Part shown: positions 28,441 through 58,477 of the stretch, one piece after another
Numbering within the stretch: position 1 is the first letter of the stretch
How the letters are laid out: every line of letters starts with the position of its first letter
DNA from: Minisyncoccota bacterium
GTDB taxonomy: Bacteria; Patescibacteriota; Minisyncoccia; Phycocordibacterales; JAQTLZ01
Assembly (NCBI GenBank): GCA_028714635.1
Contig: JAQTLZ010000001.1
Coordinates: 15,650-79,649 of the forward strand
DNA: 64,000 nt
Reading direction: 5' to 3'
Position numbers and translations under genes: made by a program
Notes under the pieces: model-generated
The model's input: the letters and a program-made list of their open reading frames with translations, nothing else
What the model was told of the DNA's origin: nothing
Database searches by the model: none

Positions 28441-28474
28441 AACTCTATCTTTTATAAAAAATAATTTTTACTTT

Positions 28475-29512
28475 ATGGCGAAAATTCGAGTTGCGATTAA
28501 TGGGTTTGGCAGAATTGGACGGGCGTTTCTCAAAGTCTCTCTTGAACACAAGGAATTGGAGGTGGTGGCGGTGAATGACCTCACTTCGATCGAAAATATC
28601 GCGTATCTTTTAAAATATGACACTGCATATGGCACTTCGCCGTTTGAAGTGAAAATCAAAGACCCAACGACACTTCTTGTGGCGGGGAAAGAAATCGCCT
28701 ACATTTCCGAAAAAGATGCGACCAAATTACCCTGGAAGGCTCACGACATCGATGTAGTAGTAGAATCCACTGGACTTTTCACAGAATTTGCAAAAGCGAA
28801 AGTGCACCTCGACGCTGGTGCAAAAAAAGTGGTTATTACTGCTCCCGCAAAAGATGAGCCTCTCGCTGACACTCCATCCGGCACGTTCCTTCTTGGAATC
28901 AATAGCGACAAAATTAAATCCTGTTCAATTACCTCGAACGCTTCTTGCACCACAAACGCAGCAAGCCCGCTTATCGCAATCCTTCACGAAACAATTGGAA
29001 TTGAAAAGGCAATTTTGAATACGGTGCATGGATATACTGCGAGCCAGTCTCTCGTTGACGGCCCAAGTAAGAAAGATTTCCGAGAGGGAAGAGCAGCAGC
29101 AATGAACATCGTGCCTTCTTCCACAGGTGCAGCAATTGCTGTGACGAAAGCATTACCAGAGCTCGCTGGGAAATTTGATGGCATATCAGTGCGAGTGCCC
29201 GTCGTTACCGGCTCTATAGTGGACGTAACATTTATTGCAAAACGAAATACGACGAAAGAAGAAATAAACGACATCTTGAAAAAAGCCGCAACTGATAAAC
29301 GATGGTCAAAGACCTTCTCTGTAACAGAAGAACAGCTTGTATCAAGGGACATCGTCGGAAGCCCATTTGCTTCCATTGCCGACCTTAATTTCACCCGAGT
29401 TGTAGACGGAAATTTAGTAAAAGTAATGGCATGGTACGACAACGAAATGGGGTATACGCATACCCTGGTGGAGCATGTGGTACTTGCTGGGAAAGCAGAG
29501 ATTGACCAATGA
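28475..29512 (+). CDS. gap: Glyceraldehyde-3-phosphate dehydrogenase, type I
   Basis: MAKIRVAINGFGRIGR...SCTTN...AWYDNEMGYT; start at the internal Met, not the ORF-track start; the last ~20 codons look element-supplied. Confidence 0.9.
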   Translation: MAKIRVAINGFGRIGRAFLKVSLEHKELEVVAVNDLTSIENIAYLLKYDTAYGTSPFEVKIKDPTTLLVAGKEIAYISEKDATKLPWKAHDIDVVVESTGLFTEFAKAKVHLDAGAKKVVITAPAKDEPLADTPSGTFLLGINSDKIKSCSITSNASCTTNAASPLIAILHETIGIEKAILNTVHGYTASQSLVDGPSKKDFREGRAAAMNIVPSSTGAAIAVTKALPELAGKFDGISVRVPVVTGSIVDVTFIAKRNTTKEEINDILKKAATDKRWSKTFSVTEEQLVSRDIVGSPFASIADLNFTRVVDGNLVKVMAWYDNEMGYTHTLVEHVVLAGKAEIDQ

Positions 29513-29572: not shown

Positions 29573-30148
29573 TTGTTTCCTCAACCGCGTTACCAGATTA
29601 TTTACGCCGATCCGCCCTGGCGCTACTCGAAGTTCCGTCATTGGCGCGTCATGGGCAAAGGCATCGCTGCCTATTACGAAACACTGACGACCTCGGAAAT
29701 CGCGGCACTGCCAGTTTCCAAAATTGCGGCCGGCGACTGCATCCTGTTTCTGTGGACGACGTTTCCGCGCTTGCCCGATGCTCTGGCCGTGATCGCGGCC
29801 TGGGGCTTCACGTACAAAACGGTGGGATTCACCTGGCTCAAACTCAATGCTCGGAACGGCAAACCGTTCTTCGGCATGGGCCACTACACCCGGAGCAATT
29901 GCGAAGTCTGCCTCATCGGCGTCAAAGGCAGGTCGCTGCGCGTGAGCAACCGCGTCTCGTCGGTGGTCTTTGCTCCCCGGCAGGAGCACAGTCGCAAGCC
30001 GGATGAAGTTCGGGAGCGGATTGTCACGCTCTGCGGCAACCGGCCCCGCATTGAACTGTTCGCCCGTGAACGGGTGTCCGGCTGGGATGCCTGGGGAGAC
30101 GAAGTGAAAAGCGACATTGAACTTGCGCCGCCATCGGAAGCGTCCTGA
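29573..30148 (+). CDS. MT-A70-family N6-adenine DNA methyltransferase (orphan)
   Basis: IIYADPPW motif; TTG start; first gene inside the element's left end. Confidence 0.75.
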   Translation: MFPQPRYQIIYADPPWRYSKFRHWRVMGKGIAAYYETLTTSEIAALPVSKIAAGDCILFLWTTFPRLPDALAVIAAWGFTYKTVGFTWLKLNARNGKPFFGMGHYTRSNCEVCLIGVKGRSLRVSNRVSSVVFAPRQEHSRKPDEVRERIVTLCGNRPRIELFARERVSGWDAWGDEVKSDIELAPPSEAS

Positions 30149-30211: not shown

Positions 30212-30808
30212 TTGTCGCTTTGTCGAAAGCGGAAGGGTTGGGGAAAAGGGAAGCTGGCGCTTCCATGGCCGTGCTTCATTACCATGTATTATTTCATCGT
30301 CTCGAAGGGCCTCCTCGATGCCAAGCACCGCAGAAGGATGGGCGTTGCAGTTTGGGAATTTCTTTGGTGCTTGGACCGCGTGACTAAAATCAATGCAGAT
30401 GGCCTGGGCCTTGTCCTCGGCGGCAAGCCGGTCAACCTCTGCGATTTCACCGGCAGCCTGGGGACTTCAGAGGTCACAGTCAGCCGCAACCTGCAAAAAC
30501 TGGCCCGCTGGAATTATCTCACGCTCGTCCATGCGCCCTACGGCATCGTCATCCAGGTGCCAAAAGCCAAGAAGAGGTTTGTCAAAAATGCTAATCCACA
30601 CGGAATCCACAGGTTTAGCGGAAATGATCGGCCTGGATTTATCAAATCTGCTCAACCTCCCTTCAGAAATGATAAACCTGACTTCAGAAGTGATAAACCT
30701 AATAAGAGAAGTAAGGATGAGAATGAAGATGAGAAAGGGCTTATCGCCATGAATGCACTCATCGAGGAAAGAAAACTGGAGATTTCACGCCTCGTAAAAT
30801 CACTATGA
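30212..30808 (+). CDS. Winged-helix DNA-binding protein (putative replication initiator or regulator) with a Lys/Asp-rich tandem-repeat tail
   Basis: GVAVWEFLWCLDRV...GTSEVTVSRNLQKLARWNYL wHTH-like region; TTG start with a GAGGGG SD, alternative ATG at 30284; C-terminal FRNDKPDFRSDKPNKR tail encoded by tandem 21-bp repeats. Confidence 0.45.
   Translation: MSLCRKRKGWGKGKLALPWPCFITMYYFIVSKGLLDAKHRRRMGVAVWEFLWCLDRVTKINADGLGLVLGGKPVNLCDFTGSLGTSEVTVSRNLQKLARWNYLTLVHAPYGIVIQVPKAKKRFVKNANPHGIHRFSGNDRPGFIKSAQPPFRNDKPDFRSDKPNKRSKDENEDEKGLIAMNALIEERKLEISRLVKSL
30654..30738. repeat. Repeat R1a: two tandem 21-bp units (TTCAGAARTGATAAACCT...) at the 3' end of the wHTH gene; copy of R1b
   Basis: ~90% identical by eye to 58052-58135. 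Confidence 0.7.
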
Positions 30809-31023
30809 CTGAAATTGAACAAATCCAAAATATTATGCTCGCCAAAGCCGTGTACGCCCTGAGCGAGATTCAGCGCACCGTTGGCCGGTTCAAAAACCAG
30901 AAACGCGCGCTCAACCGAATTGAAGCCGTAGCCAGCCGGTCCCTCCACGAGATTGACGTGCTCAAGGAGACGGTTGGCATGAAAATCAGGAACAGGGAAG
31001 GTCTCGGCACGATCAAATTCTGA
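30805..31023 (+). CDS. Hypothetical small protein (72 aa)
   Basis: 4-bp overlap with the upstream gene; its 3' end is duplicated downstream of the giant protease gene. Confidence 0.4.
   Translation: MTEIEQIQNIMLAKAVYALSEIQRTVGRFKNQKRALNRIEAVASRSLHEIDVLKETVGMKIRNREGLGTIKF
30931..31023. repeat. Repeat R2a (~93 bp), 3' end of the small ORF; copy of R2b
   Basis: ~88% identical by eye to 35651-35743. Confidence 0.7.
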
Positions 31024-31198
31024 CCTGTGGTTTTCTGGTTGTCGCTCAAGAGTCACACGAAGCATGTGCCTCACAACTTATTTGAAACCCCCATCCTCGC
31101 GTTCGCGAGAGCGGGGTTTCTTGTCCACATTGTCCCCCTTCCTTCACCGGTAGTGGATGCTGTATACTACATACTGATATTATTTCAATTCGAGAGGC

Positions 31199-35632: not shown

Positions 35633-35650
35633 CAAGAAGCGCGCCCAAAA

Positions 35651-35743
35651 GCCAGCCAGTCGCTCCACGAGATTGGTGTTCTCAAGGAGACGGTGGGCAT
35701 GAAAATCAGGAACGGGGAAGGACTTGGCACGATCAAATTCTAA
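35651..35743. repeat. Repeat R2b (~93 bp) directly after the protease stop codon
   Basis: Continues in frame after the TAA and encodes ...SLHEIGVLKETVGMKIRNGEGLGTIKF*, homologous to the C-terminus of ORF 30805-31023. Confidence 0.7.
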
Positions 35744-35908
35744 CGCTGGTTTTGCGGCCACCCGGCTGCCTCGAAAAGTGGCTGCCAGTGCCGGCGTGCC
35801 CGGCAGAAAAGTCAGAGAAAGTTTTCATTGCGGGGCTGGTGAACTTGCATATACTCGCCATCACCTAAGCAAGTCGGGGCAGACAACAAGGTGAAAGGAG
35901 GAGGGGTC

Positions 35909-36418
35909 ATGCCGGAAGAAGTTCTCGGCGGGATGTGGGAAAGCATCAAGACAGAGTGGGAATCGGCCCGGCCACAGGTGACGGGGCATTGCACGCTCAT
36001 TGAAGATTTCCAAGCTTCGCCCACTCACTTTTACGGCCTCGTCGAAAAGGCAATTGAGCGCCGCAAGATTCCGGGTCTGCGCATGTCGCATGTCCTGCAT
36101 CGGGAAGGCTGGATCATGTCCGCGGCGCGCGAGTACCTGCGCGCCGAGCGCGGCAAGATTTCGTTTGAAATCTGCGGCGCGCCCTTCGGGACCGGGTTTT
36201 TCGTGTCGTGCCGCATGATCGTCATGCCGGAAAAGAATGGCATCTTCGCCCGGATTTGGAAGTTCCTGTTCAATCCCAACACCTTCTACCAAATGGACGT
36301 TGCCGCCATGTACCAATCGGCAATCGAATCAGCGGTGAAGGAAGCGAAGAACGAATTGACGCAGACGAAACTCTCCGTGCCGGGCCTGCGCACCAGCGCT
36401 GTTCCGGTGCTTGCGTGA
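35909..36418 (+). CDS. Hypothetical protein (170 aa), first gene of a three-gene operon
   Basis: Strong GGAGGAGGGG SD; no recognised family; ends 5 nt before the ATPase start. Confidence 0.4.
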   Translation: MPEEVLGGMWESIKTEWESARPQVTGHCTLIEDFQASPTHFYGLVEKAIERRKIPGLRMSHVLHREGWIMSAAREYLRAERGKISFEICGAPFGTGFFVSCRMIVMPEKNGIFARIWKFLFNPNTFYQMDVAAMYQSAIESAVKEAKNELTQTKLSVPGLRTSAVPVLA

Positions 36419-36423
36419 CGGCC

Positions 36424-39400
36424 ATGAGCGCAAACGAATACGCCCTGGCCCGGCCTCAAGCGCACGGCAGCACCGCCGATTTGGTCGCGAGCGAATTCTC
36501 CCGCTGGCTTGCCTTGGGGCAAGGCACGCGGGAATGGGATTTCCCTGTCTTTATCGAGCCGCCCTACAGTCCGATCATCGTCGCTCCCGCTGTTATCGAG
36601 GACGACGGCAGGCAGCCGACGATTCTCAGCGCTCTGGCGGATACCGTCGGCAACTGGCTGAGTCCGAAAAAGAGACCCGCGCCTAAAGCGAACACGGTCG
36701 TTGCCGGCGATCTCAATTGGCTGGCATTTCCCAATTGCAGCACGCCCGTTGAATTTCAAGCGCTCATTCCTCCGCACATCAGCATCCGCAAGGACAGCTT
36801 CGAGCAATTCTTAATGAGCGTCAGGTACTGCCACTTTCCGCTCTGTTTCGAATTGATCGGCCGCGCGGATTCGATCACGGTTCAACTGGTCGCGCAGCAA
36901 GATGACGTGGCGCACGTCGAACCGCAACTCGCGGCGCACTTTCCGGACATTGTCTTCGCTAAACGCACGGGGCATCTGGAAAAAGTCTGGCAGGAGACGG
37001 AAGGCGAGCATCGCTTTCTTTTTGGGTTCAGCCTGTTGCAGCCGTTTCTCCTGCCGCTCGAATCCTATCGGGGTTTTCCCGTCGATCCGCTCGTTGGCCT
37101 GGCTGGCGCACTTTCCGACATCCGCAAGGACGAGGCCGCCGTCTTCCAAGTGCTCTTTGAACCGGCGCGCAATCCGTGGCTTGAGACGCTGGCTCAAGTC
37201 GCCGAGTTCGCGCCGGAACTCAGCCCGCATATTCGCAAGAAGATTGCGTATCCGTTTTTTGCGGTGGTGGCGCGGCTGGCTTGCAAGGCCGCGAGTGAAG
37301 AGCGCTTGGTGCAATTGCTCAAGAATCTCGACGGCGCGATGCGCGTATTTTCAACCCCTGCTGGAAACGGATTGACCGTGCTTTCCAACAAGGGCTATTC
37401 GAGTGGCCGGCAGGAAATTGATCTGTTACTGCGACAAACGCACCGCAGCGGCATGTTGCTGAACAGCGACGAACTGCTGGGCCTTGCGCATTGGCCGACA
37501 CCCGCGGTGCGCACGCCGAAGCTGGACCGCGCCACGCGCAAGACAAGGCCGGCGCCCACGCTCTGCCTGAATCATGCGTTGACGCTCGGCACGAACAACC
37601 ACAACGGAGAAGACAGCACCGTGACGCTCGCGCCCGCGCAGCGCGTCAAGCACATGCACGTCGTCGGCGCGTCGGGCACCGGCAAGTCAACGTTTCTACT
37701 CAACCTCATCATCCAGGACATTGAAAACGGCGAGGGCGTCGGCGTGCTCGATCCGCATGGCGACCTTGTGGATGAAATTCTCGCCCACATTCCCGCAGAA
37801 CGCCACGACGATGTGGTCCTCGTCGATCCGTCCGATGAAGAATACCCGGTCGGTTTCAATATCCTTTCGGCGCACTCGAATCTCGAAAAGAACCTGCTGG
37901 CTTCGGACCTCGTTTCCGTTTTTCGCCGCCTGTCCACAAGCTGGGGCGATCAAATGACCTCAGTGCTCGGAAACGCCGTGCTCTCGTTTTTGGAAAGCAG
38001 CACTGGCGGCACGCTCTCCGATTTACGGCGGTTTCTGATTGAACCGGGCTTCCGCGCGGAATTTCTTGAAACGGTGCGTGACGAGGAAGTCGTGTATTTC
38101 TGGAAGAAGGAATTTCCGCTCCTCTCCGGCAAGCCGCAAGCATCGCTGTTGACCCGGCTCGATTCCTTCCTGCGCCCCAAGCCGATTCGCCACATGGTTT
38201 GCCAGAAGGAGAACAAGCTCGACTTCGCGAGCATCATGGATTCCAAGAAAATCTTTTTGGCGAAACTCTCGCAAGGATTGATCGGGCAGGAAAACTCATA
38301 CCTGCTTGGCTCGCTGTTCGTCTCGAAATTCCATCAACTTGTCATGGGCCGTCAGGAAGTGCGCCAGTCCGAACGTGAAAACTTCTGGCTCTACCTCGAC
38401 GAATTTCAGAATTTCGTCACCCCGTCGATGGCGGCGATTCTCTCCGGCGCGCGTAAATACCGCCTCGGCCTTATTCTCTCGCACCAGGACATGCACCAAC
38501 TGGTGAGCCGCGATCCCGATGTGGCAAATGCCGTCCTTGCCAACGCCTTTACGCGCGTCTGTTTCCGGCTCGGCGACTCCGACGCGCGGCGCATGACCGA
38601 AGGCTTCTCGAATTTCGATGCTCACGATTTGCAGAGCTTGGGCACCGGCGATGCAATCTGCCGCATTGAGCGTTCCGCCTTCGATTTCAACATGTATACC
38701 GCATTGCCGGAACTCGTTGACGAAGAACTCGCCGAAGAACGGCGGCGGCGCATTCGGGAATTTTCGCGCGCCAAGCACAGCAAGAGGCGGACGGAGCTTG
38801 AGCCGCCGCGAGGCCAGACTCCGGCAGCGCCAGCATTCCCCAAAGCCGAAGATACCACTCCCACGCCAGCGGCGCCGAGGCCCGAACCCGCGCCGCTCCA
38901 AATCGCCAAGTCCACTCCAGGCAAAGGCGGCCACGAGCACAAAGTTTTTCAGCAAGTGCTTTGCGATTGGGCTGGCGATCTCGGCTTTACGGCTGCAATC
39001 GAACAGGAACTTCCGAGCGGACAGGGCAGTGTCGATGTCGAAATCGAAACCGGCTCCGAATCCATCGCCTGCGAAATTTCCGTCACAACCAGTATTGCCG
39101 ATGAACTGAGCAATCTCACGAAATGCCTGACGGCCGGCTACGATCACCTGCTGATGATCTGCACCGATCGCGGCAAACTCGACGCCTTGAAACGCAGTGC
39201 CGCTGCCAAGTTTCCTGCTGACGCGCTTGAGCGGGTCCAGTTTGTGACGCCAACCGAAGCGTTCCAATTCCTGCATAGCTTGATCGACGGCGTCTCAATC
39301 ACGGCGAAAGGCGCGCTGTCAAGTTACGGATGCGACGTGCGCGTAAATTACCCGCCCGCCGCGAGCGCACCTTCCAGCAAGAAAGGCGGCGTGGCGCAAG

Positions 39401-39444
39401 CCGTCAGGAATGCCACCAAGCGTCTTCGCGACGGAAGAAAATAG
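36424..39444 (+). CDS. Large P-loop NTPase of the TraD/VirD4/HerA-FtsK (AAA_10/TraG-D_C-like) class, with a ~430-aa non-membrane N-terminal region and a C-terminal nuclease-like domain
   Basis: Walker A HVVGASGTGKST, VLDPHGD, Walker B LYLDEFQNF, and a LILSHQDMHQL motif; no TM helices. The C-terminal ~150 aa (VDVEIETGSESIACEIS) are acidic and possibly PD-(D/E)xK-like. Confidence 0.55.
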   Translation: MSANEYALARPQAHGSTADLVASEFSRWLALGQGTREWDFPVFIEPPYSPIIVAPAVIEDDGRQPTILSALADTVGNWLSPKKRPAPKANTVVAGDLNWLAFPNCSTPVEFQALIPPHISIRKDSFEQFLMSVRYCHFPLCFELIGRADSITVQLVAQQDDVAHVEPQLAAHFPDIVFAKRTGHLEKVWQETEGEHRFLFGFSLLQPFLLPLESYRGFPVDPLVGLAGALSDIRKDEAAVFQVLFEPARNPWLETLAQVAEFAPELSPHIRKKIAYPFFAVVARLACKAASEERLVQLLKNLDGAMRVFSTPAGNGLTVLSNKGYSSGRQEIDLLLRQTHRSGMLLNSDELLGLAHWPTPAVRTPKLDRATRKTRPAPTLCLNHALTLGTNNHNGEDSTVTLAPAQRVKHMHVVGASGTGKSTFLLNLIIQDIENGEGVGVLDPHGDLVDEILAHIPAERHDDVVLVDPSDEEYPVGFNILSAHSNLEKNLLASDLVSVFRRLSTSWGDQMTSVLGNAVLSFLESSTGGTLSDLRRFLIEPGFRAEFLETVRDEEVVYFWKKEFPLLSGKPQASLLTRLDSFLRPKPIRHMVCQKENKLDFASIMDSKKIFLAKLSQGLIGQENSYLLGSLFVSKFHQLVMGRQEVRQSERENFWLYLDEFQNFVTPSMAAILSGARKYRLGLILSHQDMHQLVSRDPDVANAVLANAFTRVCFRLGDSDARRMTEGFSNFDAHDLQSLGTGDAICRIERSAFDFNMYTALPELVDEELAEERRRRIREFSRAKHSKRRTELEPPRGQTPAAPAFPKAEDTTPTPAAPRPEPAPLQIAKSTPGKGGHEHKVFQQVLCDWAGDLGFTAAIEQELPSGQGSVDVEIETGSESIACEISVTTSIADELSNLTKCLTAGYDHLLMICTDRGKLDALKRSAAAKFPADALERVQFVTPTEAFQFLHSLIDGVSITAKGALSSYGCDVRVNYPPAASAPSSKKGGVAQAVRNATKRLRDGRK

Positions 39445-39455
39445 GTGGTTGCCGC

Positions 39456-40622
39456 ATGTCTCAAACCAACGAGGTCAAACTTTCCAGGCATGTGCCATTC
39501 GGCTATCGGCGCGAACCGGCAGGCGAACTCGTGCCGGACCCCGTCGAGGCTCCCATTCGAAAGGAGCTTTACGAGCTTTTTCTCCGTCATGGCCGCAAAA
39601 AGACAGTCGCCAAATTACTGAACGAAGCTGGCCACCGCACGCGCGACGGGTCGCTTTTTTCAGACGCAACAATCGGCAGGTTGCTCCGCGATCCCATCGT
39701 GACCGGCGCTGCAACCTCGACGTTCAAGATCGAGCCGCTTATTTCGGAAGAAGTTTGGCGGCAGTGCCAGGAATTGCTGCAACATCCCGTTCCGAAAACA
39801 CCGGCACATCTCTTCGCCGGAATCGTCCAGTGCGCGTGTGGCACGAAAATGTACGTGCCAACGAACTCCGACAAATATGTTTGCGCGAACTGCCGGCGAA
39901 AGGTTCCAGCACGTCGTCTTGAAAACATCTTCTTCGACCAGTTCAAAACCTGCTTCCTGGTGCCGCTCGAAACCGGAAGCGAAGGCGGTGAACTGGTCCA
40001 GAATGTTCAAATCTGGCCGCACTTCACGCCTGAAGAGAAACGGCAGGTCGTCGAATCAATGACACAATCGATCGTTGTCGCTGATCGGAGGATCGACATT
40101 AACCTGTATTATTTGCCTTCGGTAAAAGACATGACAAATTGGCAACACGAACAAATTGGCAACAAGTCCGGCGAACGCCAGTCTACGCGCGTCCATGAAA
40201 GTCCGCTGCGGTTCAACGTAGATACCCGTGAACTCCGGCACGGCGAAACGTCATTGACGTACAAGCTCAATGAAACCACCCGCAACTTTCTCACGGTTTT
40301 GGCGCTCAATATCACAAACGGGATACACCTCCCGCTCGAACTCGACCGGCCCTTCGCGGACGGAGCCAGTTGCACAACGCGCAATGCCCTCGATACCCTG
40401 CGTAAACAGATCGGGGCGGTGATCTGCAAGCGCCTCATCAAAACCGAGCGCGGTTCAGCCACAAGGCCCGGCGGCGTCAGGCTTCAGAATGTAGAAATTG
40501 CTGGCGTTGGGAAGCGGGAAATCACTCTCAATCCCGAAGCTGTCCACGCCGCCAAATCCAACCGAACCGGCCAGTCCGCAAGGCAGCGCAAGCCACTTTC
40601 CGGTGAGCATTTTGAGCGTTGA
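39456..40622 (+). CDS. Serine-recombinase paralogue with the recombinase domain and zinc ribbon only (no resolvase catalytic domain)
   Basis: HVPFGYRREP...LVPDPVEAPIRKELYELFL (Recombinase domain) and CACGTKMY...YVCANC zinc beta-ribbon; no N-terminal catalytic Ser domain; AGGTGG SD. Confidence 0.55.
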   Translation: MSQTNEVKLSRHVPFGYRREPAGELVPDPVEAPIRKELYELFLRHGRKKTVAKLLNEAGHRTRDGSLFSDATIGRLLRDPIVTGAATSTFKIEPLISEEVWRQCQELLQHPVPKTPAHLFAGIVQCACGTKMYVPTNSDKYVCANCRRKVPARRLENIFFDQFKTCFLVPLETGSEGGELVQNVQIWPHFTPEEKRQVVESMTQSIVVADRRIDINLYYLPSVKDMTNWQHEQIGNKSGERQSTRVHESPLRFNVDTRELRHGETSLTYKLNETTRNFLTVLALNITNGIHLPLELDRPFADGASCTTRNALDTLRKQIGAVICKRLIKTERGSATRPGGVRLQNVEIAGVGKREITLNPEAVHAAKSNRTGQSARQRKPLSGEHFER

Positions 40623-40706: not shown

Positions 40707-41120
40707 TTGCGCTTGGCGCCGGACTTCCAGCGAGTGTTTTCCATCAATAGGTATGGGGCGAACATGATTGCTTCGTTGCTCATGCCGCTTTGGAACGCCT
40801 CTGAGGGTCAATCCTCCATGCCGCACTCGCAGTCTCAGCAAATTCCAGCCACAGAAATACAAGAAATCGGCACAGAATCTTTCACAGATTTTACTGGACA
40901 GGATGACGCGGCTCGAGGTAATGTCCCTGTGTCCGCAGGACCGACAAGGCCGCTCGCGTTGAACAGGATTACGGACGAATTGCTCGACGATACGCTGCGG
41001 GTCTGGTCGGGAGCCTACGGCCAAACAATGACCGAAGACGATGGCGTGGAAATCCTGCTCAACGTCAAGCGTCTGGCCGAAGTGCTTATGAAGTCAGGAC
41101 AAAAAGGAGATATGCGATGA
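40707..41120 (+). CDS. Hypothetical protein, 4-bp overlap with the serine recombinase gene
   Basis: TTG start; no recognised family; alternative start at MIASLL. Confidence 0.3.
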   Translation: MRLAPDFQRVFSINRYGANMIASLLMPLWNASEGQSSMPHSQSQQIPATEIQEIGTESFTDFTGQDDAARGNVPVSAGPTRPLALNRITDELLDDTLRVWSGAYGQTMTEDDGVEILLNVKRLAEVLMKSGQKGDMR

Positions 41121-42712
41121 ACGTGATTGTCTGGGCGCGGGTCTCGTCCCGCGAGCAGCGCGAAGGATACTCCCTTGACGCGCAGCTTCGCGCCGCGCGT
41201 GAACGTGCGACAAAGAACGGCTGGACGGTTCTCAAGGAGTTCGTGGTCGCGGAATCGGCCCGGCGTGGTGCCGAGCGGGTGGCTTTCAACGAGATGTTTC
41301 AATGGGTGAAAGCCAACGCCAAACGTGATGGCATCAAAGCAATTCTGAGCCACAAACTGGATCGTGTCTGCCGCAATATGCGCGACGCGGTGCGCTTGCA
41401 AGAACTTGAAGACACCTGCGGCGTGCATCTGGCCTTCGTCGAAAACCAGTTTGGGCCGGGAGCCGCGGGCGCGCTGTCGTTTAACGTCATGGCCGCCGTG
41501 GCTCAGTATTACTCCGACAACCTGCGCAACGAAGTCTTGAAGGGCATGGATGAAAAAGTCCGGCAGGGCTGGCCCACGGGACTTGCGCCGTTCGGATACC
41601 AGAACGTGGAGAACCGCAACGAGCCGGTGGTTCCGCATCCCGTCGAATCCATAGCAGTGGCGCGCATTTTCGAGTTGTACTCGTCTGGCAACTGGACATT
41701 CAAAAGTCTCGGTGACCAGCTTGAGCGGGAGGGCATCATCTACCGTCCAAGCCAGCCGCGCTTTACGTCCTCGGCGCTCTCAAAGATTCTCAACAACCGA
41801 TTCTACATGGGCCAGATTATCCGCCGCGGCCAGGCTTTCCCCGGCAAGTACCGCGCGCTGATTGACCGCAGCGTCTTTGAAGCCTGTCAGCAGTTGCTCC
41901 ACGGCAAGAACCGGCGCACGGGCAATCCCGAAATCATGCTCTCCGGCGGCATCCTGCGCTGCGCGCATTGCGGCCACGCCATCACCGGAGAGTTCATCCG
42001 GCGCAAGCTGAGATGCGGCGGCGTCAATGTCCACACGTACTACAAATGCGGCAATAACAACCAGGCGCCGGAACATCCCAAAGTCCGCTGGCGCGAAGAG
42101 GCTGTTGAAGAAGCGCTCTTGCACGAGTTCCTTGCTCTGAAGCTGCCCACGCCGGAATCGGCGGAGTGGTTCCGAACAGCCTTGCGGGCCGGATTTGCGA
42201 ACGTGGATGAAAACCAGCGCCGCCAAAAGCAAATGTTGGGCAAGCGCACAACTGAATTGGTGAACATGCAGGACCGGTTGTTGAATGGCTATCTGGCTGG
42301 AGCCATTGACGAGGCAGTTTTCAACCGCAAATCCACCGAGTTGAAAGCGCAAGCCGTGGAGACTCAAAGCGCTCTGGAAAAGGCGGATGCGTACGATCCC
42401 GAAGCGGCGGAGCGCGCCCTGTCAGTGTTCGACTTCAGCCAGAATTTGGCCGAGCGCTGGCGCGGTTCGAACTATTCAGTCCGGCGTGAAATCCTGCTCT
42501 GCGTGAGTTCGAACCGGCTCCTTGGCACTACAACTCTTGAACTGCAAAAGAGAAAGCCCTTCGACGCGCTCGCCGAAGATCTCGTTTTGAAGATTGGTCG
42601 GGGCGACTGTACAGACTTCGAACCAACTTCTTTCATTGATTCATTCCTTCGTCCACCCGAACCGCACATTCTAACCGCTGCGCGATTGGAACGGGAGAAC
42701 ACTTTCTGTTAA
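41117..42712 (+). CDS. Large serine recombinase (integrase)
   Basis: N-terminal resolvase domain MNVIVWARVSSREQ...; recombinase domain (GLAPFGYQ); zinc ribbon (CAHCGHAI...YYKCGN); coiled-coil C-terminus. Confidence 0.85.
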   Translation: MNVIVWARVSSREQREGYSLDAQLRAARERATKNGWTVLKEFVVAESARRGAERVAFNEMFQWVKANAKRDGIKAILSHKLDRVCRNMRDAVRLQELEDTCGVHLAFVENQFGPGAAGALSFNVMAAVAQYYSDNLRNEVLKGMDEKVRQGWPTGLAPFGYQNVENRNEPVVPHPVESIAVARIFELYSSGNWTFKSLGDQLEREGIIYRPSQPRFTSSALSKILNNRFYMGQIIRRGQAFPGKYRALIDRSVFEACQQLLHGKNRRTGNPEIMLSGGILRCAHCGHAITGEFIRRKLRCGGVNVHTYYKCGNNNQAPEHPKVRWREEAVEEALLHEFLALKLPTPESAEWFRTALRAGFANVDENQRRQKQMLGKRTTELVNMQDRLLNGYLAGAIDEAVFNRKSTELKAQAVETQSALEKADAYDPEAAERALSVFDFSQNLAERWRGSNYSVRREILLCVSSNRLLGTTTLELQKRKPFDALAEDLVLKIGRGDCTDFEPTSFIDSFLRPPEPHILTAARLERENTFC

Positions 42713-47969: not shown

Positions 47970-50900
47970 ATGAAAAAACTACTGCTCACACTATCTCTTG
48001 TTTCTTTCATCTTTCTTTTCAGCCCGCGGCTGGCTTTTGCCGCCACCAAATACTGGTCCGGCACCGGCACATGGAACGCCGCCAATACCAACTGGGGCAC
48101 CAGTCCGGGCGGTCCTTACAACGCCGCAACTTTCAATACCGGCGACGATGCCGTATTTGAAGGAAGCGCCGGTACTGTAACCGTATCTGCGCCGAATCAT
48201 CCCAATTCCATAACGTTCAACAAGACTGGATACACATTAAACAGCGGCACGCTGACTCTCGATGGCCCCTCAATCGCCGTAAGCTCCGGCGCCGCCACCA
48301 TCAATTCAAGCATTGCCGGCTCCGCCGGCCTTGCCAAGAGCGGTGGCGGAACGCTCACGCTATCCGGCAACAACTCCTTTACCGGCGGCTTGACCGTGAA
48401 GTCGGGCACACTCGAGGGCACGGGGAGCGTGAATGCCTTTGGCGGCTCTGGAACCGGCGCCATCACCCTCGGTGATTCCAGCGGCAGCGCCAACGCCACG
48501 CTGAGCGGCGGCGCCGGTCCATTTGCCAATCCGATCTCCGTGGCCTCCGGCAACACGGGCGCCGCCACCATCATCAGAAACGGTGTCGGCGGCAATAGCA
48601 CTTTCAGCGGCGCGGTCACGCTCAACTCGCATAACCTCGTCCTCAATCCCGGCGGCAATGCGCTCAGCATGAGCGGCGGCTTCACGGGCGCCGGAAATCT
48701 TGCATTCAATTCCTCGTTCAACTCGATCACTATTCAAACCGGCAGCGTCAACAACACGGGCACGATCACGCAATCTGGCGCCGGCGCGGTGACGGTGAGC
48801 GGCGGTGTCGGCGCCAACGTCACGGACATTATTCAAAACGGCACGGCGTCTCTCACCATCAGCACGACGGCGCTCACCGTCAATAGCGGCGGCACTACCT
48901 TGACCAACACCAGCAGTAACGGATCTCTATTGACCGTCTCCGGCGGCGTGAACGGCACGGGCAACCTCATTATCAAGAACAATACCGGCACGGCCAACGC
49001 TGTCACGCTCTCGACAAATAGCGTCAACAACACCGGCGCGGTCACCAACTCCGGCGCCGGCAGCGGCGGCGCCACCATCAGCGCGGTTGTTGGCGTCAAC
49101 GTCACTGGAGTGGTTCAAAACAGCGCCAGCTCAAGTTTGACACTCAGCGGCGCCAACACGTACACCGGCCCGACAACGGTCAGCGCCGGCACGCTTCAAG
49201 CGGGCGTGGCCTCGGTGGCAAACGTCAGCGGCGCATTTGGCAAAAACTCTACTGTGACGATGGCGAACGTTGCGGGCGCCGCCTTGAATATCACCGGCTT
49301 CAATACACAGATCGGCTCTCTCACCGGCGGCGGAGCGGCGGGCGGCAACGTGACGCTCGGATCCGCGACGCTGACGGTTGGCGGAGACAACACCAGTCCG
49401 GCGGCGTACGCGGGCGTGCTCTCCGGCGCGGGCGGCCTGACCAAGATTGGCGCCGGAACGTTGACGCTGACGGGGATAAATACCTATGCCGGCGCGACGA
49501 CCATTGCCGCGGGAACATTGAACGCAAATTCCACCTCGGCGCTCGGCAGCGGCGGCGCGGCCAACACGCTCATCTTCAGCGGCGGCGCCTTGCAAGCCTC
49601 CGGCGCCATTACTTCACCGGGCACCCGGACACTGACGCTGACCAGCACCGGCCTCATTGACACCAACGGCCAGAGCGTGAGCATTGCCGGAGTCATGAGC
49701 GGCGCGGGCGGTCTTACCAAATCCGGCGCGGGCACGCTCACCCTCTCCGCCGCCAATACCTTCACGGGCAAAACCAGCATTACCGGCGGCGCCCTGAGCG
49801 TTACCAACAATGGCAATCTCGGCGCAACCCCTGGTTCTGTCACTCCAGACAGCATCACGCTTAACGGCGGCACTCTTCAATTCACGGGCGGCACGACCGG
49901 CCAAACTGCCACGCTCGCCACCAACCGCGGCATCACGCTCGGCAGCCTGGGCGGAACCCTCAAAATCACGTACACGGTAGCGAGCGGCTCTTTCAACGCG
50001 CTGACGGACACTCCCTCATTCGTTTACTCGGGCATTATCGCCGGCACAAGCGGCGGTAACCTGGCCATCCAGGGCGGCGCTGGCACGAATAACGGATCCA
50101 ATCCGTACCTCTTTAAGTTTAATGGCGCTTCCACCTACAATGGCAACACTACCATTGATAACGCTACTCTGACCTATTTCAATTCCGGGTCGGCGGGCGA
50201 CAATCGCCTGCCTGCGAGCACAGTCCTTACTATTATCAATAATGGGGCGTTCAATATTTGCGGTCAGGCTTCCGGCACAAGGACCCAGACTCTCGCGGGT
50301 CTCATCGGTGACTCGACGGCTAAAGTCGGCGGCACGAACCAGGTAAATCCCGCTGTGCTGGCGCTCAATCCCTCTGCTTCCAGTTTCACCTGGAGCGGCG
50401 TTATTGGTGTCACCACCGTAGTCGACAAGACCGGCATAAACAGCTTGCAATCGGTGGTTAAATCCGGCGCAGGCACGGAGATTTTTGCCGGTCAAAATAC
50501 GTACGCGGGCGCGACGAACGTGAATGCCGGAGTGCTTCGGGCGGGCGTGGCTTCGGTGGCAAACGTCAGCGGCGCGTTTGGCAATAATTCAGCCGTGACC
50601 CTGGCAAATGCCGCGAGCGCCGTTTTGGACCTTGCGGACTTCAATACGCAGATTGGGTCTTTGACCGGCGGCGGCGGAACGGGCGGTAACGTGACGCTCG
50701 GATCCGCGACCCTCACGGTTGGCGGCGACAACACCAGCCCGGCGGCGTACGCGGGCGTGCTCTCCGGCGCAGGTTCTCTGGCCAAGATCGGAACAGGCGC
50801 TTTTTCAATCTCGAACACTGTCACTCTCGGCGGCGATTTTACGATTTCCGCCGGAACCGTCTCGGCTAATAGCTCTATGATGAACGTAGCTGGCAACTGG

Positions 50901-55736: not shown

Positions 55737-56279
55737 TTACTTCATACCATTTTTGCTCCAGCGCTCGATTTTATCTTCAATCACTGCCCGTGGCATGGCG
55801 TAGCGCTCCCGCGAACGCCGAATCATGTTTTCCTTTTTGCCGTAGCGCGTGCCGGACGGGGGATAGGTCGTGGCGAGAAATGGCTCGCCGTGAACTCCGC
55901 CGTCAAGGATCTTCATGTACGTGTCATAGTTGTTCAAATCCATAAACTGAGTTGAGCGGAACGCGTTGCCGAATTCTTTTTCCAAAATCTCGGCGTCAGT
56001 GCTTCCAACCCGGAAAGAAATGATGCTGCCGACATTGCCAAGAATCGCCGTGCGGACTTCATTGGTAAGCTGGTCCATGTACTGGTGACTGAGCGTCAAA
56101 CAGAGCCGGTATTTGCGGGCCTCGGCAAGAATAGCCGCGAAACTATCCGTGGTGAAGTTGTGGTATACCCATTCTTTAATCTGGCATGTTTTGGAGATGG
56201 GACAATAGAAATTCGTGCAGGATGTGAAGGCGATGCAAAGCTTATCAACAGGAGTCGAACTTGTTGTCAGGCTTTGCAT
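55737..56279 (-). pseudogene. Truncated paralogue of the TraD/HerA-like ATPase (C-terminal fragment, no Walker A)
   Basis: ARKYRLCLTLSHQYMDQL... aligns with ARKYRLGLILSHQDMHQL... of 36424-39444; the reading frame begins just after the Walker B position; intermediate GC; abuts the AT-rich boundary. Confidence 0.55.
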
Positions 56280-56381
56280 TGGAAATAAGGAGCTCCGCTT
56301 GTTTGTAATTACAATTTGATGTCACAGAACGTGATCTCATACGTTGTAATAATTATAAAGTGTGGTAATATAATAAATACT

Positions 56382-56576
56382 ATGATAATCAACTGGACAC
56401 ATTTGATTGAGAAATATAAGGGAATGTGGGTAGCTCTCAAGGATGACGAGACCTCTGTCGTCGCCAGCGGCAAGACCGCAAAAGAGGCATTCCAAGCTGC
56501 TCTCAAAAAGGGCTATTCTCACCCGCTCCTTACTCGCGTACCGGACAAACTGACCGCGTTTGTCGGTGCTCTCTAG
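56382..56576 (+). CDS. DUF5678-family small protein
   Basis: MIINWTHLIEKYKGMWVALKDDETSVVASGKTAKEAFQAALKKGY pattern. Confidence 0.5.
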   Translation: MIINWTHLIEKYKGMWVALKDDETSVVASGKTAKEAFQAALKKGYSHPLLTRVPDKLTAFVGAL

Positions 56577-56589
56577 TACCTGCTCTAAA

Positions 56590-57009
56590 ATGAAATTCTC
56601 GTACAAGAAGTTGGCGACGGGACACGTTCGCCCGATTATTCAGGTAGAGGTAAGTCATAACGGAGGGCAAGCAATCAACTACTTTGCGCTTATAGATTCT
56701 GGCGCTGATATTTGTATCTTTCACGCAGAAATCGCCGAATTGATTGGAATCGAAGATATTACAACTGGAAGAAAAGGAACTGTTGGAGGCATTACGCAAG
56801 GCGAACAGCAGGACTACTGGATACATCCGGTCAGCATCAATGTCGGCGGCTGGAAATATGATCTGGAAGTGGCCTTCATGCCGACACTGTCACGGTTGGG
56901 GTATGGTGTCTTTGGTCAGAAAGGATTTTTCGATTCGTTTGCGATAAAATTTCGAAAAGTGAAGGGGGAGATTGAACTGGTTGACGAAACACAAAAGACA
57001 AAGGAGTAA
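56590..57009 (+). CDS. Retropepsin-like aspartic protease
   Basis: ALIDSGADICIF (D-S/T-G-A motif) and single-domain size; overlaps the 3' end of the DUF5678 gene. Confidence 0.65.
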   Translation: MKFSYKKLATGHVRPIIQVEVSHNGGQAINYFALIDSGADICIFHAEIAELIGIEDITTGRKGTVGGITQGEQQDYWIHPVSINVGGWKYDLEVAFMPTLSRLGYGVFGQKGFFDSFAIKFRKVKGEIELVDETQKTKE

Positions 57010-57700
57010 GCCTCGGGTTTATCGGCTTAAATCAAGACACACTGTTCCGGGACAGAATCCGGAGAAATGCGTCTTTCCTTTTCACTCGGAATGATATTAC
57101 ACGCTTGATAGTAGAGAGAATCTTGATATTTCCCGAAGATTGTTTCGTAACGAGTATCCTATCACAAATACTGTTGCAATGAAAATAGGTAATGCGGTAT
57201 AATTCTCCTTGTAGGAGTGTTATGGTGAACAGTCATTAGTAAGAGAAAAACCGATATTGTAAAAGTAAAAACTCTCGTTTTGAATCGGGGTATCAGGATA
57301 AAACCTTATACTCCTACAAGTTGAGGCGCATTCTTTCTACGAAATGAGTGTTCCTTGATACTCCGATTCAGGATAAGAGTTTTTTATTTTGGGTGGATTT
57401 AAATAGCTCTAGCTAATTCAGCAAGCTCCAAAATAAAGCTCAAAAAAATAACAATGAAAACTTTCATTGTCGGCGGATGTATAGCACTTGAGTGCTGTAT
57501 TGATGCCCGAGGCCAGAGAATTTGCTGGCCACTGGGGAAGAAACAGAAAACGCCCCCACCTATTAAGGTTAAGAGCGTTTTCATTCAAACGTCAGTGAAA
57601 GCTTAAGCTTTCAACGCATTACATCTTTAGCGGGATGTAATGTGTTTTTATTATACCCTTCGGTACGGGCAGATACCATATCAAAAAAGTGGATAGAAAG

Positions 57701-57913
57701 TCAAACCTTTTCCTTCTTTATCCATACATAAACCCGTATACCACGAATCCAAATCCAGACTAAAATACATAACAACGCGACAAGAAACCACCAGATTTGC
57801 GCGGGGGTATCTGGACTACTTATTACAAGCCAAAGAAGACCAAGAAAAAATAACAGAATGAAGGTAAATGCAATTATACTCTTTCCTTTTCTGCCTACTA
57901 ACCAGAATAACAT
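57701..57913 (-). CDS. Small hypothetical membrane protein (70 aa)
   Basis: Two predicted TM helices; low confidence that it is a real gene. Confidence 0.3.
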   Translation of the reverse strand: MLFWLVGRKGKSIIAFTFILLFFLGLLWLVISSPDTPAQIWWFLVALLCILVWIWIRGIRVYVWIKKEKV

Positions 57914-58051
57914 ATTTGAATCATAGTTCTTTCTGTGTTTTCAATCAAGTGGATAAATCAATTATGCCGTAAAGGGAGACGTGTGTGCTAATCCTCAAGA
58001 AATCCACAGGTTCAACAGATTTGCTAATCCACAGCTTTATCATTTCCGCCG

Positions 58052-58135
58052 AACCTCCCTTCAAAAGTGATAAACCTCGCTTCAGAAATGATAAACCTAA
58101 TAAGAGAATTAAGTAGAGAATGAAGATGAGAAAGG
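58052..58135. repeat. Repeat R1b: degenerate copy of the wHTH gene 3' end with two tandem 21-bp units
   Basis: ~90% identical by eye to 30654-30738; reads ...PPFKSDKPRFRNDKPNKRIK* in one frame. Confidence 0.7.
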
Positions 58136-58408
58136 AAATGAATTTGCAAACTTGGAAAGATTTGTTGGAGTCGCCCGCAGACGCCAGACATATTGACGAA
58201 CGTGTCCTGCGATTGTGTGCTGTCACTTTGTCTCTTGCCAAAAACTAAGACCAAGTAAATAATTCCAGCAGAGATAAATGTTCGTTGAAAAAAGAATATT
58301 CGCTCGTCTGCAAAGGTCACAATAAGAATTGCGAATTTTGTAGACAAGCGAGCGGAGGTAATTCAAACAACGCGGGATTTGTGTTAATCTAAAGCAATGG
58401 CAATATCA

Positions 58409-58477
58409 GCATGGCACCACAATGAAGTCGGGTATACGCACTCTCTTATTTGGCATGTGCTTGAGATGGGGAAGTAA
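58409..58477 (+). pseudogene. Displaced remnant of the gap 3' end (23 codons) at the right attachment site
   Basis: Translates to AWHHNEVGYTHSLIWHVLEMGK*, versus AWYDNEMGYTHTLVEHVVLAGK in the intact gene; shared GGGTATACGCA core. Confidence 0.6.

Follow-up and report, generated by a model that had tools for sequence, protein, structure and literature searches.

A candidate replication origin within the initiator gene of an integrative element from a Pacebacteria genome, and a related stretch in its presumably decayed tandem neighbor

The window analyzed here is a stretch of 64,000 nucleotides from the genome of a bacterium of the candidate phyla radiation (CPR). It contains a GC-rich integrative element, here called E1, inserted in the 3' end of gap, the gene for glyceraldehyde-3-phosphate dehydrogenase (GAPDH). 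Near its left end E1 carries a gene for a protein of 174 amino acids (aa) with a winged helix-turn-helix (wHTH) domain, and short repeats in the 3' part of that gene (copy A) recur in non-coding DNA near the right end of the inserted block (copy B). Why should the same repeat stretch be present once within a gene and once outside of any? We propose that copy A is the origin of E1, located in its own initiator gene, and that copy B is a relic from an older and decayed tandem sister element, E2. This reading as a whole is considered probable, though well short of certain.

Two repeat stretches and the constraint on their DNA

The features on which the comparison is based are the following.

30284 to 30808, forward strand: putative initiator gene, 174 aa, with the wHTH domain in codons 1-97, a repeat-bearing linker and a short C-terminal helix
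30573 to 30738, forward strand: copy A, the proposed origin, from the site map, the conservation of synonymous sites and codon positions, and the family-wide repeats
57986 to 58135, forward strand: copy B, an orphan, non-coding candidate origin stretch, from the alignment to copy A and the site map

A sequence-only reading of this DNA had pointed to two related stretches here, and they are present with a homology wider than it had described. Positions 30589-30738 and 57986-58135 align over 151 columns with 122 identities (80.8%; blastn E-value 7.7e-33 with the low-complexity filter off). Outside of these columns the identity is 42-48%, which amounts to no homology, and the edges are sharp on both sides. 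The two tandem 21-bp units reported for each copy are confirmed as pairs of perfect TGATAAACCT units, 21 bp apart, at 30670 and 30691 in copy A and at 58068 and 58089 in copy B. When checked by alignment, the nucleotide identity is extended and is not confined to low-complexity Lys and Asp codons; it takes in AATCCACAGGTT, CCTCCCTTCA and the spacers. The second copy had been placed about 300 bp before a remnant of gap, and copy B does end 256-274 bp upstream of that remnant (approximately 58391/58409-58477).

Both copies are dense in sites resembling TGATAAACC. At up to two mismatches such sites occur at 2.4 per kb across the window, and the densest 150-nt segments in the 64 kb are copies A and B, with seven sites each where approximately 0.36 are expected. 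The exact 10-mer is not over-represented in the window (six matches at no more than one mismatch vs 3.7 expected). In copy A the seven sites fall within 30576-30699, about 20 times the window-wide rate, and start at 30576 (-), 30589 (+), 30612 (-), 30636 (-), 30649 (+), 30670 (+) and 30691 (+). Three are thus inverted and four direct, the last three at a spacing of 21 bp, or two helical turns. The repeats are followed by a purine-rich tract (30701-30738) in which 33 of 38 nucleotides (87%) are purines on the top strand, with no C and an A+T content of 63%. The sites of copy B start at 57986 (+), 58009 (-), 58022 (+), 58034 (-), 58068 (+) and 58089 (+) and also lead into a purine tract; the first inverted site of copy A is missing.

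The two copies differ in their coding status. Copy A lies in frame inside the gene at 30284-30808. Copy B is non-coding: one nucleotide is inserted, one is deleted, and a TAG stands at 58114-58116. The insertion falls between the inverted and the direct group of sites.

The constraint on the repeat stretch was assessed in five full-length initiator genes aligned codon by codon and divided into the domain (codons 1-97) and the linker (codons 98-152). Pairwise amino-acid identity is 74% in the wHTH domain and 51% in the linker. Where the residue is the same, the codon is identical in 44% of cases in the domain (298/673) and in 81% in the linker (214/263), and codons 121-152 alone reach 87-91%. 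Because the linker is rich in two-codon residues, the codon comparison was stratified by residue; the domain's per-residue rates predict 130 identical codon pairs in the linker, where 214 are observed. Arg codons are identical in 35 of 35 linker pairs vs 12 of 38 in the domain, and Pro codons in 28 of 34 vs 9 of 29. Identity at codon positions 1, 2 and 3 is 0.80, 0.88 and 0.46 in the domain, a profile of the usual protein-coding type; the linker profile is flat (0.71, 0.70 and 0.72). Judged from these comparisons, the repeat stretch is conserved as DNA and not as protein. An overlapping gene was considered as another source of linker conservation. Each alternative frame is interrupted in some sequence of the five-gene family, and since none is open in all five genes an overlapping gene fails to explain it.

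The similarity of the copies might instead stem from low-complexity codons or from selection on the peptide repeat of the tail (FRNDKP/FRSDKP), in which case the DNA itself would play no role. The peptide encoded by the units is indeed repetitive, and Lys, Asp, Asn and Arg are abundant in the tail. The linker is, however, the least conserved part of the protein and the part most conserved at synonymous sites, and its conservation is indifferent to codon position. Copy B is conserved despite being out of frame and interrupted by a stop, and phage relatives of the gene, described below, hold repeats of quite different sequence in the same place. The codon analysis and copy B already largely refute the peptide explanation, and we regard it as very unlikely.

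The initiator family and origins embedded in initiator genes

The 174-aa product is identical to P0001, an NCBI hypothetical protein from a Candidatus Pacebacteria metagenome-assembled genome. Its residues 2-107 match PHROG 7498, 'DnaD-like helicase loader', with an E-value of 7e-24. This PHROG annotation is matched by nine of nine family members, and 'replication initiation O-like' by five. Distant homologs are located in phage contigs with terminase genes, and another 41 phage loci with relatives of the initiator came from a scan of IMG/VR. The closer homologs (56-70% identity) share the short 174-aa form and E1-like contexts; in one of them, the metagenomic relative L002, the gene order is initiator, two small open reading frames (ORFs) and a coupling protein. 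NCBIfam has no family for the protein, and a profile search of PDB sequences returned generic MarR/ArsR-type wHTH matches only. By its PHROG matches and weak MarR/Crp-type wHTH matches in Pfam, the protein is a relative of phage replication initiators with an N-terminal winged-helix DNA-binding domain.

The TGATAAACC-like array is also found inside the initiator gene of four relatives (L002, L004, L005 and L006). These share one site map with copies A and B: inverted sites upstream, direct sites at 24, 21 and 21 bp, ACCTAATAAGAGAA and the purine tract, which is kept in all six sequences. At the same position L001 and L003 have three to four tandem repeats of entirely different sequence at a spacing of 21-33 bp. 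In L006 (440-515) all five sites read TGnTGAACC, with G for A at position 5. A concerted change of this kind would be expected of sites that track their binding protein, and suggests co-evolution with the recognition surface of the initiator.

The presence of repeats extends well beyond these close relatives. A tandem-repeat score, which counts 10-mers with at least nine of ten positions identical at lags of 15-35 nt, was computed for five 260-nt segments of the 41 phage loci. The segment directly after the domain has a mean score of 10.2 and reaches at least 5 in 29 of the 41 loci. Four segments served as controls, one upstream, one for the domain and two downstream; their means are 0.15-0.42, and a score of at least 5 is found in 0 of approximately 41 loci for each. 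The lags in the phage relatives range from 18 to 35 nt and are clustered at 21-22 and 33, equivalent to two and three helical turns, while the repeat sequences vary between lineages. For the proposal that the units may also serve as iteron-like protein-binding sites there is good comparative support, namely the initiator families, the codon-independent conservation and the repeats in 29 of 41 phage relatives. A scan of genome and metagenome contig collections for the exact pattern of the tandem units TGAYAAACCTNNNTTCAGAARTGAYAAACCT found none. It also missed the known JGI relative, which implies that those collections do not include the initiator family.

Copy A is most likely an origin of the lambda/SPP1 type embedded in the initiator gene. 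In the mechanism that we propose, the serine recombinase of E1 would excise the element as a circle and the 174-aa winged-helix protein would bind the TGATAAACC-like sites in copy A. The bound initiator would then open the adjacent purine-rich tract and the E1 circle would be replicated, as with lambda O at ori-lambda and SPP1 G38P at oriL.

In lambdoid phages the origin is inside the O gene, where the repeats impose repeated linker residues and extra iterons lengthen the protein (PMC7466680). The E1 gene resembles the lambdoid arrangement, known from ori-lambda and from the Shiga toxin (Stx) phages P27 and 933W, in that its product has an N-terminal DNA-binding domain and its direct repeats lie mid-gene in the initiator's own gene. 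In lambda the repeats are initiator-bound and are followed by an easily opened tract, and copy A may by analogy be organized in the same way. Unlike lambda O, the E1 protein has no match to Pfam Phage_rep_O and is only 174 aa in length, with no large C-terminal helicase-loader domain. The sites of copy A also differ from those of lambda in being 9-10 bp, in both orientations and at 21-bp spacing, and the tract is purine-rich and not strongly AT-rich. The carrier is not a phage but an integrative element that encodes a serine recombinase and a coupling protein, and its candidate origin is known from sequence.

The Bacillus phage SPP1 has oriL embedded in gene 38, and its G38P protein binds two separate regions, oriL and oriR, with comparable affinity (PMC5737612). 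With one cluster in the initiator gene and a second far off, SPP1 is the closest parallel to a remote second copy such as copy B. The two SPP1 clusters are in one genome, however, whereas copy B is in a separate decayed element beyond the right attachment (att) site of E1 and is 19% diverged.

A tandem of two elements in gap

The location of copy B is best understood from the way in which gap is interrupted.

28475 to 29512, forward strand: host gap (GAPDH) gene, from its translation and the alignment with L007
29441 to 29460, forward strand: attL junction region AACGAAATGGGGTATACGCA, with native L007 gap sequence on the left and an element-type tail on the right
56150 to 56208, forward strand: middle att site, with the degenerate E1 P arm, GGTATAC (56162-56168) and the E2 gap-tail mimic YTHSLIWHVLEMGQ followed by a stop
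56169 to 58440, forward strand: E2, the presumed decayed sister element, approximately 2.3 kb and AT-rich, from its bounding att copies and ORF content
58300 to 58440, forward strand: E2 right-end arm, with weak homology to the L004 right end and the degenerate gap mimic AWHHNEVGYT
58441 to 58477, forward strand: displaced native gap 3' end, ending in HSLIWHVLEMGK and a stop, the right arm of attR, from the P0010 tail and the DNA alignment

Three copies of the gap 3' end are present (29429-29512, 56150-56208 and 58409-58477), and att sites lie within them at 29450-29460, 56162-56168 and 58430-58440. No fourth attachment site was found inside E1. The last approximately 17 codons of gap (29461-29512, ending in HTLVEHVVLAGKAEIDQ) come from the inserted element as its P' arm, with the attL crossover in or near GGGTATAC, and the functional gap gene of the window ends in GYTHTLVEHVVLAGKAEIDQ. 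P0010, at 91% identity the closest GAPDH relative, ends in GYTHSLIWHVLEMGK, which is exactly the translation of the rightmost remnant at 58429-58477. In the relative L007 the native gap matches 28451-29461 and then resumes at 58409-58477, where 33 nt of 58409-58441 are also counted at attL. The L007 alignment and the P0010 tail together imply that the DNA from approximately 29461 to approximately 58440 is inserted and that the current gap tail is borne by the element.

The middle att site divides the insertion in two. E1 corresponds to 29461-56168 (approximately 26.7 kb) and has a GC content of 51-65%, against approximately 40% in the rest of the window; the value falls from approximately 55% to 38% at 56.2 kb. 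The E2 segment that follows has no recombinase or transfer gene among its ORFs, as judged by translations and Pfam. Its genes are a DUF5678 and aspartyl-protease-like pair (56316-57009) and small ORFs. When 56.0-58.7 kb was compared with E1 and all relatives by blastn and tblastx, the matches were limited to copy B, the gap remnant and a coupling-protein fragment, and the relatedness of E2 to E1 is based on copy B together with a weak right-arm homology. The genes for the DUF5678 protein and the retropepsin-like aspartyl protease overlap and could be a pair of the addiction type that favors persistence of the remnant. No record was found for the protease-like ORF with the start codon used.

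The joined attP form is shown in the relative L004 only, where 560-850 comprises the element right end, an 85-bp gap mimic (SAWYTNEMGYTYSLVEHAILLGRGI, then a stop), approximately 100 bp and the initiator gene. This joined form places the initiator and the candidate origin beside the att site in this element family. The L004 right arm resembles the current gap tail of the window (CCTGGTGGA). The joined ends of L004 represent an excised circle or a tandem junction, and gap is evidently targeted in other hosts too.

The displaced tails are informative on the age of the insertions. The middle tail and the rightmost remnant differ over 14 codons by seven synonymous changes and one K/Q, read from the alignment. 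The rightmost remnant and the L007 native tail (1474-1522) differ by nine synonymous changes and zero replacements. Because the differences are almost only synonymous, both tails would have been translated until recently and the insertions look young.

These features suggest the following order of events. E2, an older member of the family, would have integrated first into the gap 3' end and supplied the middle tail. It would then have decayed to 2.3 kb, keeping its att arms and origin stretch but losing the DNA-binding domain of its initiator. A small deletion would have taken the winged-helix part of the E2 initiator gene, and a large one the DNA between the origin stretch and a point approximately 210 bp before the right arm. 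E1 would later have integrated at the same site, giving the tandem. Successive insertions of two related elements had been one of the two possibilities raised by the sequence-only reading, and it gains support from the position of copy B in a 2.3-kb decayed sister in tandem, the three gap-tail copies and the native gap tail at the right.

The other possibility, ends of one element that share a binding module, did not hold. In that case the copies would be terminal modules of a single element of 29.5-58.4 kb, used by a recombinase, transposase or partition protein, and their distances of approximately 1.1 kb from the left and approximately 0.3 kb from the right junction of the inserted block could be taken in its favor. 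The junctions are set by the gap-tail copies, however, which are the att sites; E1 ends at approximately 56.17 kb, and a third junction at 56.16 kb divides the block at the fall in GC content. The copies are direct, are at unequal distances from the ends and include one within a gene, and the right ends of E1 and L004 are without any such cluster. We consider terminal modules extremely unlikely, and we judge in the same way the idea that copy B arose recently from copy A, by duplication within the genome or by gene conversion. Copy A is indeed the best match of copy B among the available sequences. Yet their identity of 80.8% is equaled by that of copy A to the independent relative L002 (80.3% over the same columns), copy B agrees with copy A at only 47 of 75 variable columns, and it shares states such as ANPQ.IHRFN and TGTTGAACC with other lineages. 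The equal divergence and the shared states imply that copy B came from a sister element and is not a recent duplicate. A stronger competitor, though still an unlikely one, is that copy B functions as an orphan iteron cluster, bound in trans by the E1 initiator. It might act as another origin in the manner of SPP1 oriR, as a site that restrains E1 replication by titration or handcuffing in the manner of P1 incA, or as the origin of a minimal satellite, namely E2 with its att arms and origin, that the E1 recombinase would excise and the E1 initiator replicate. Copy B retains two perfect TGATAAACCT sites at 21 bp, four other sites and the purine tract. Of the 76 columns without variation among the five functional genes it matches 74, as good a value as any of those genes reaches when left out in turn. 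Its homology coincides exactly with the proposed origin and breaks off abruptly at either edge, both att arms are kept in E2, and the two separate regions bound by SPP1 G38P are a precedent. On the other hand, the near-synonymous differences between the gap tails indicate that the insertions are recent, and a fresh relic would show the same conservation as a functional copy. The first inverted site is gone, and the 1-nt insertion separates the inverted from the direct group. As far as sequence is available for L001 (20.7 kb), L003 (11.4 kb), L002, L004 and L005, no second iteron cluster is present in them, and the window is a single example.

Extra clusters of iteron plasmids, such as P1 incA and F incC, are copy-number controls on the same replicon. 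Copy B is like them in being an iteron-type cluster outside the origin proper. It is unlike them in lying in a different element, outside the att sites of E1, though its sites match those of copy A. E2 may even be alive, as a 2.3-kb hitchhiker with two att arms, an initiator-less origin and a toxin-antitoxin-like pair that is excised and replicated by E1 proteins, or copy B may be a decoy that titrates the initiator; we regard this as an outside chance.

Several observations weigh against copy A as the E1 origin and copy B as its decayed counterpart. The A+T content of the purine tract is only 63%, which makes its function as an unwinding element uncertain. No Pfam replication-protein family is matched by the initiator, which has weak MarR/Crp-type wHTH matches in Pfam, and AlphaFold on an alignment of nine sequences gave an unusable model, with a predicted local distance difference test (pLDDT) score of 44. 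The homology of the E2 right end to the element family is weak, with a local score of 23 against the L004 right end vs 15.8 +/- 2.2 for shuffled sequences (8 of 500 shuffles reach 23). The sharp edges of copy B and its 74 of 76 columns would equally fit a cis site that is still in use, and a relic need not look so. The distances of the E2 origin-like stretch to the left and right arms (approximately 1.8 and 0.3 kb, respectively) do not follow the arrangement in L004 and E1, so at least two deletions must be assumed. With these points taken into account copy B is most probably a relic, a reading to which we assign about two-thirds of our confidence, and we infer that it is inactive.

E1 gene content, tandem accretion and significance

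Three E1 genes are relevant to its classification and to its left end.

29573 to 30148, forward strand: MT-A70 DNA methyltransferase, left-end cargo of E1 (Pfam PF05063, E-value 6e-30)
36208 to 39444, forward strand: type IV coupling-protein-like / FtsK-like ATPase (Pfam TrwB_AAD_bind and TraG-D_C)
41117 to 42712, forward strand: large serine recombinase, presumed E1 integrase (Pfam Resolvase, Recombinase and Zn_ribbon_recom)

The opposite strand of E1 has genes for a DnaG-type primase, a Replic_Relax protein and an ArdC-like protein, as well as for a coupling-protein fragment. Among the scanned ORFs none was recognised as a VirB4 or mating-pore protein. E1 is integrative and possibly mobilizable, not a proven integrative and conjugative element (ICE); under the explanation favored here it is probably a mobilizable or conjugative integrative element in a Pacebacteria (CPR) genome.

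Other features of E1 were noted along with these genes. The compositional gap to the rest of the window suggests either that E1 arrived recently, from a host that is very different, or that it has a composition of its own. Upstream of the initiator in L005 (159-1555), a divergent pair of ImmA-like peptidase and helix-turn-helix (HTH) repressor faces a Cro-like HTH gene. This is a switch of the phage or ICE type; E1 is without it and has the MT-A70 methylase in its place. The recombinase genes at 39330-40622 and 41117-42712 lie near one another and are separated by a 137-aa ORF (40707-41120). The product of the former (430 aa) has the Recombinase and zinc-ribbon domains and no catalytic resolvase domain, while that of the latter is a complete large serine recombinase of 531 aa. 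A coupling-protein C-terminal fragment on the reverse strand (55737-56279), truncated at the Walker B region, abuts the E1 right arm. It is only 41% identical to the full coupling protein of E1 and is probably a relic of yet another element.

E1 also encodes three giant surface-type proteins of 1477 aa (PKD/Big), 1597 aa (no Pfam match) and 1130 aa (PATR repeats). The 1477-aa gene is bracketed by a 95-nt direct repeat (30930-31024 and 35650-35744, 89% identical), which duplicates the 3' end of the 72-aa ORF next after the initiator. L002 is without a gene of the 1477-aa type there, and this giant gene therefore looks like a later cargo insertion. Within the 1130-aa PATR-repeat gene there is a 296-nt internal repeat (49155-49450 and 50496-50791, 80% identical).

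The island is flanked by gatB and gap on the left and by genes for a 290-aa membrane protein and rpiB on the right. Further right, position and similarity to the relative L008 indicate rpe and transketolase genes. In L008 gap is followed by two unrelated genes and then by rpiB-rpe-tkt, with no island. A search for a strain variant with an empty site or with E2 alone led to two contigs with the downstream 290-aa protein, both 100% identical to the window. No tRNA or Rfam family was found in 29-59 kb.

Tandem accretion of ICEs or integrative and mobilizable elements (IMEs) with a decayed cis-mobilizable element (CIME), in a three-step process, is described for the ICESt1/ICESt3-related elements of Streptococcus thermophilus (PMC5704250). 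The arrangement in gap is similar in its site-specific insertion in the 3' end of a housekeeping gene, its three direct att copies, and an older element that would have decayed to an att-bearing remnant before a related element entered the same site. Accretion is recognised here by a gap 3' end that was supplied by the element and a native end that was displaced to the far side. The ICESt1/ICESt3-related elements of S. thermophilus target fda. Unlike them, the tandem in the window has a CPR host, gap as its target and a large serine recombinase as the presumed integrase. Unlike the S. thermophilus CIME, the E2 remnant also keeps an origin-like stretch, in a tandem that is known here from sequence.

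Both components of the explanation have clear precedents, the initiator-embedded origin on one side and the tandem accretion with a decayed relative on the other. The new aspects are the setting, with a serine-recombinase element that targets gap in a CPR bacterium, and a remnant that keeps just its att arms plus an origin-like stretch. The duplication calls for no new biology unless the remnant is replicated or mobilized in trans; a living E2, if true, could travel with E1. The mobile elements of CPR bacteria (Patescibacteria) are poorly described, and the window offers a cleanly delimited example, comprising a 26.7-kb GC-rich element with a replacement gap end, a candidate origin in the style of lambda and a decayed sister alongside. 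It also offers a signature for annotation. Tandem repeats of approximately 21 bp after a winged-helix domain, together with conservation that is blind to codon position, would mark an origin, and this signature holds across dozens of uncultivated phages of the initiator family.

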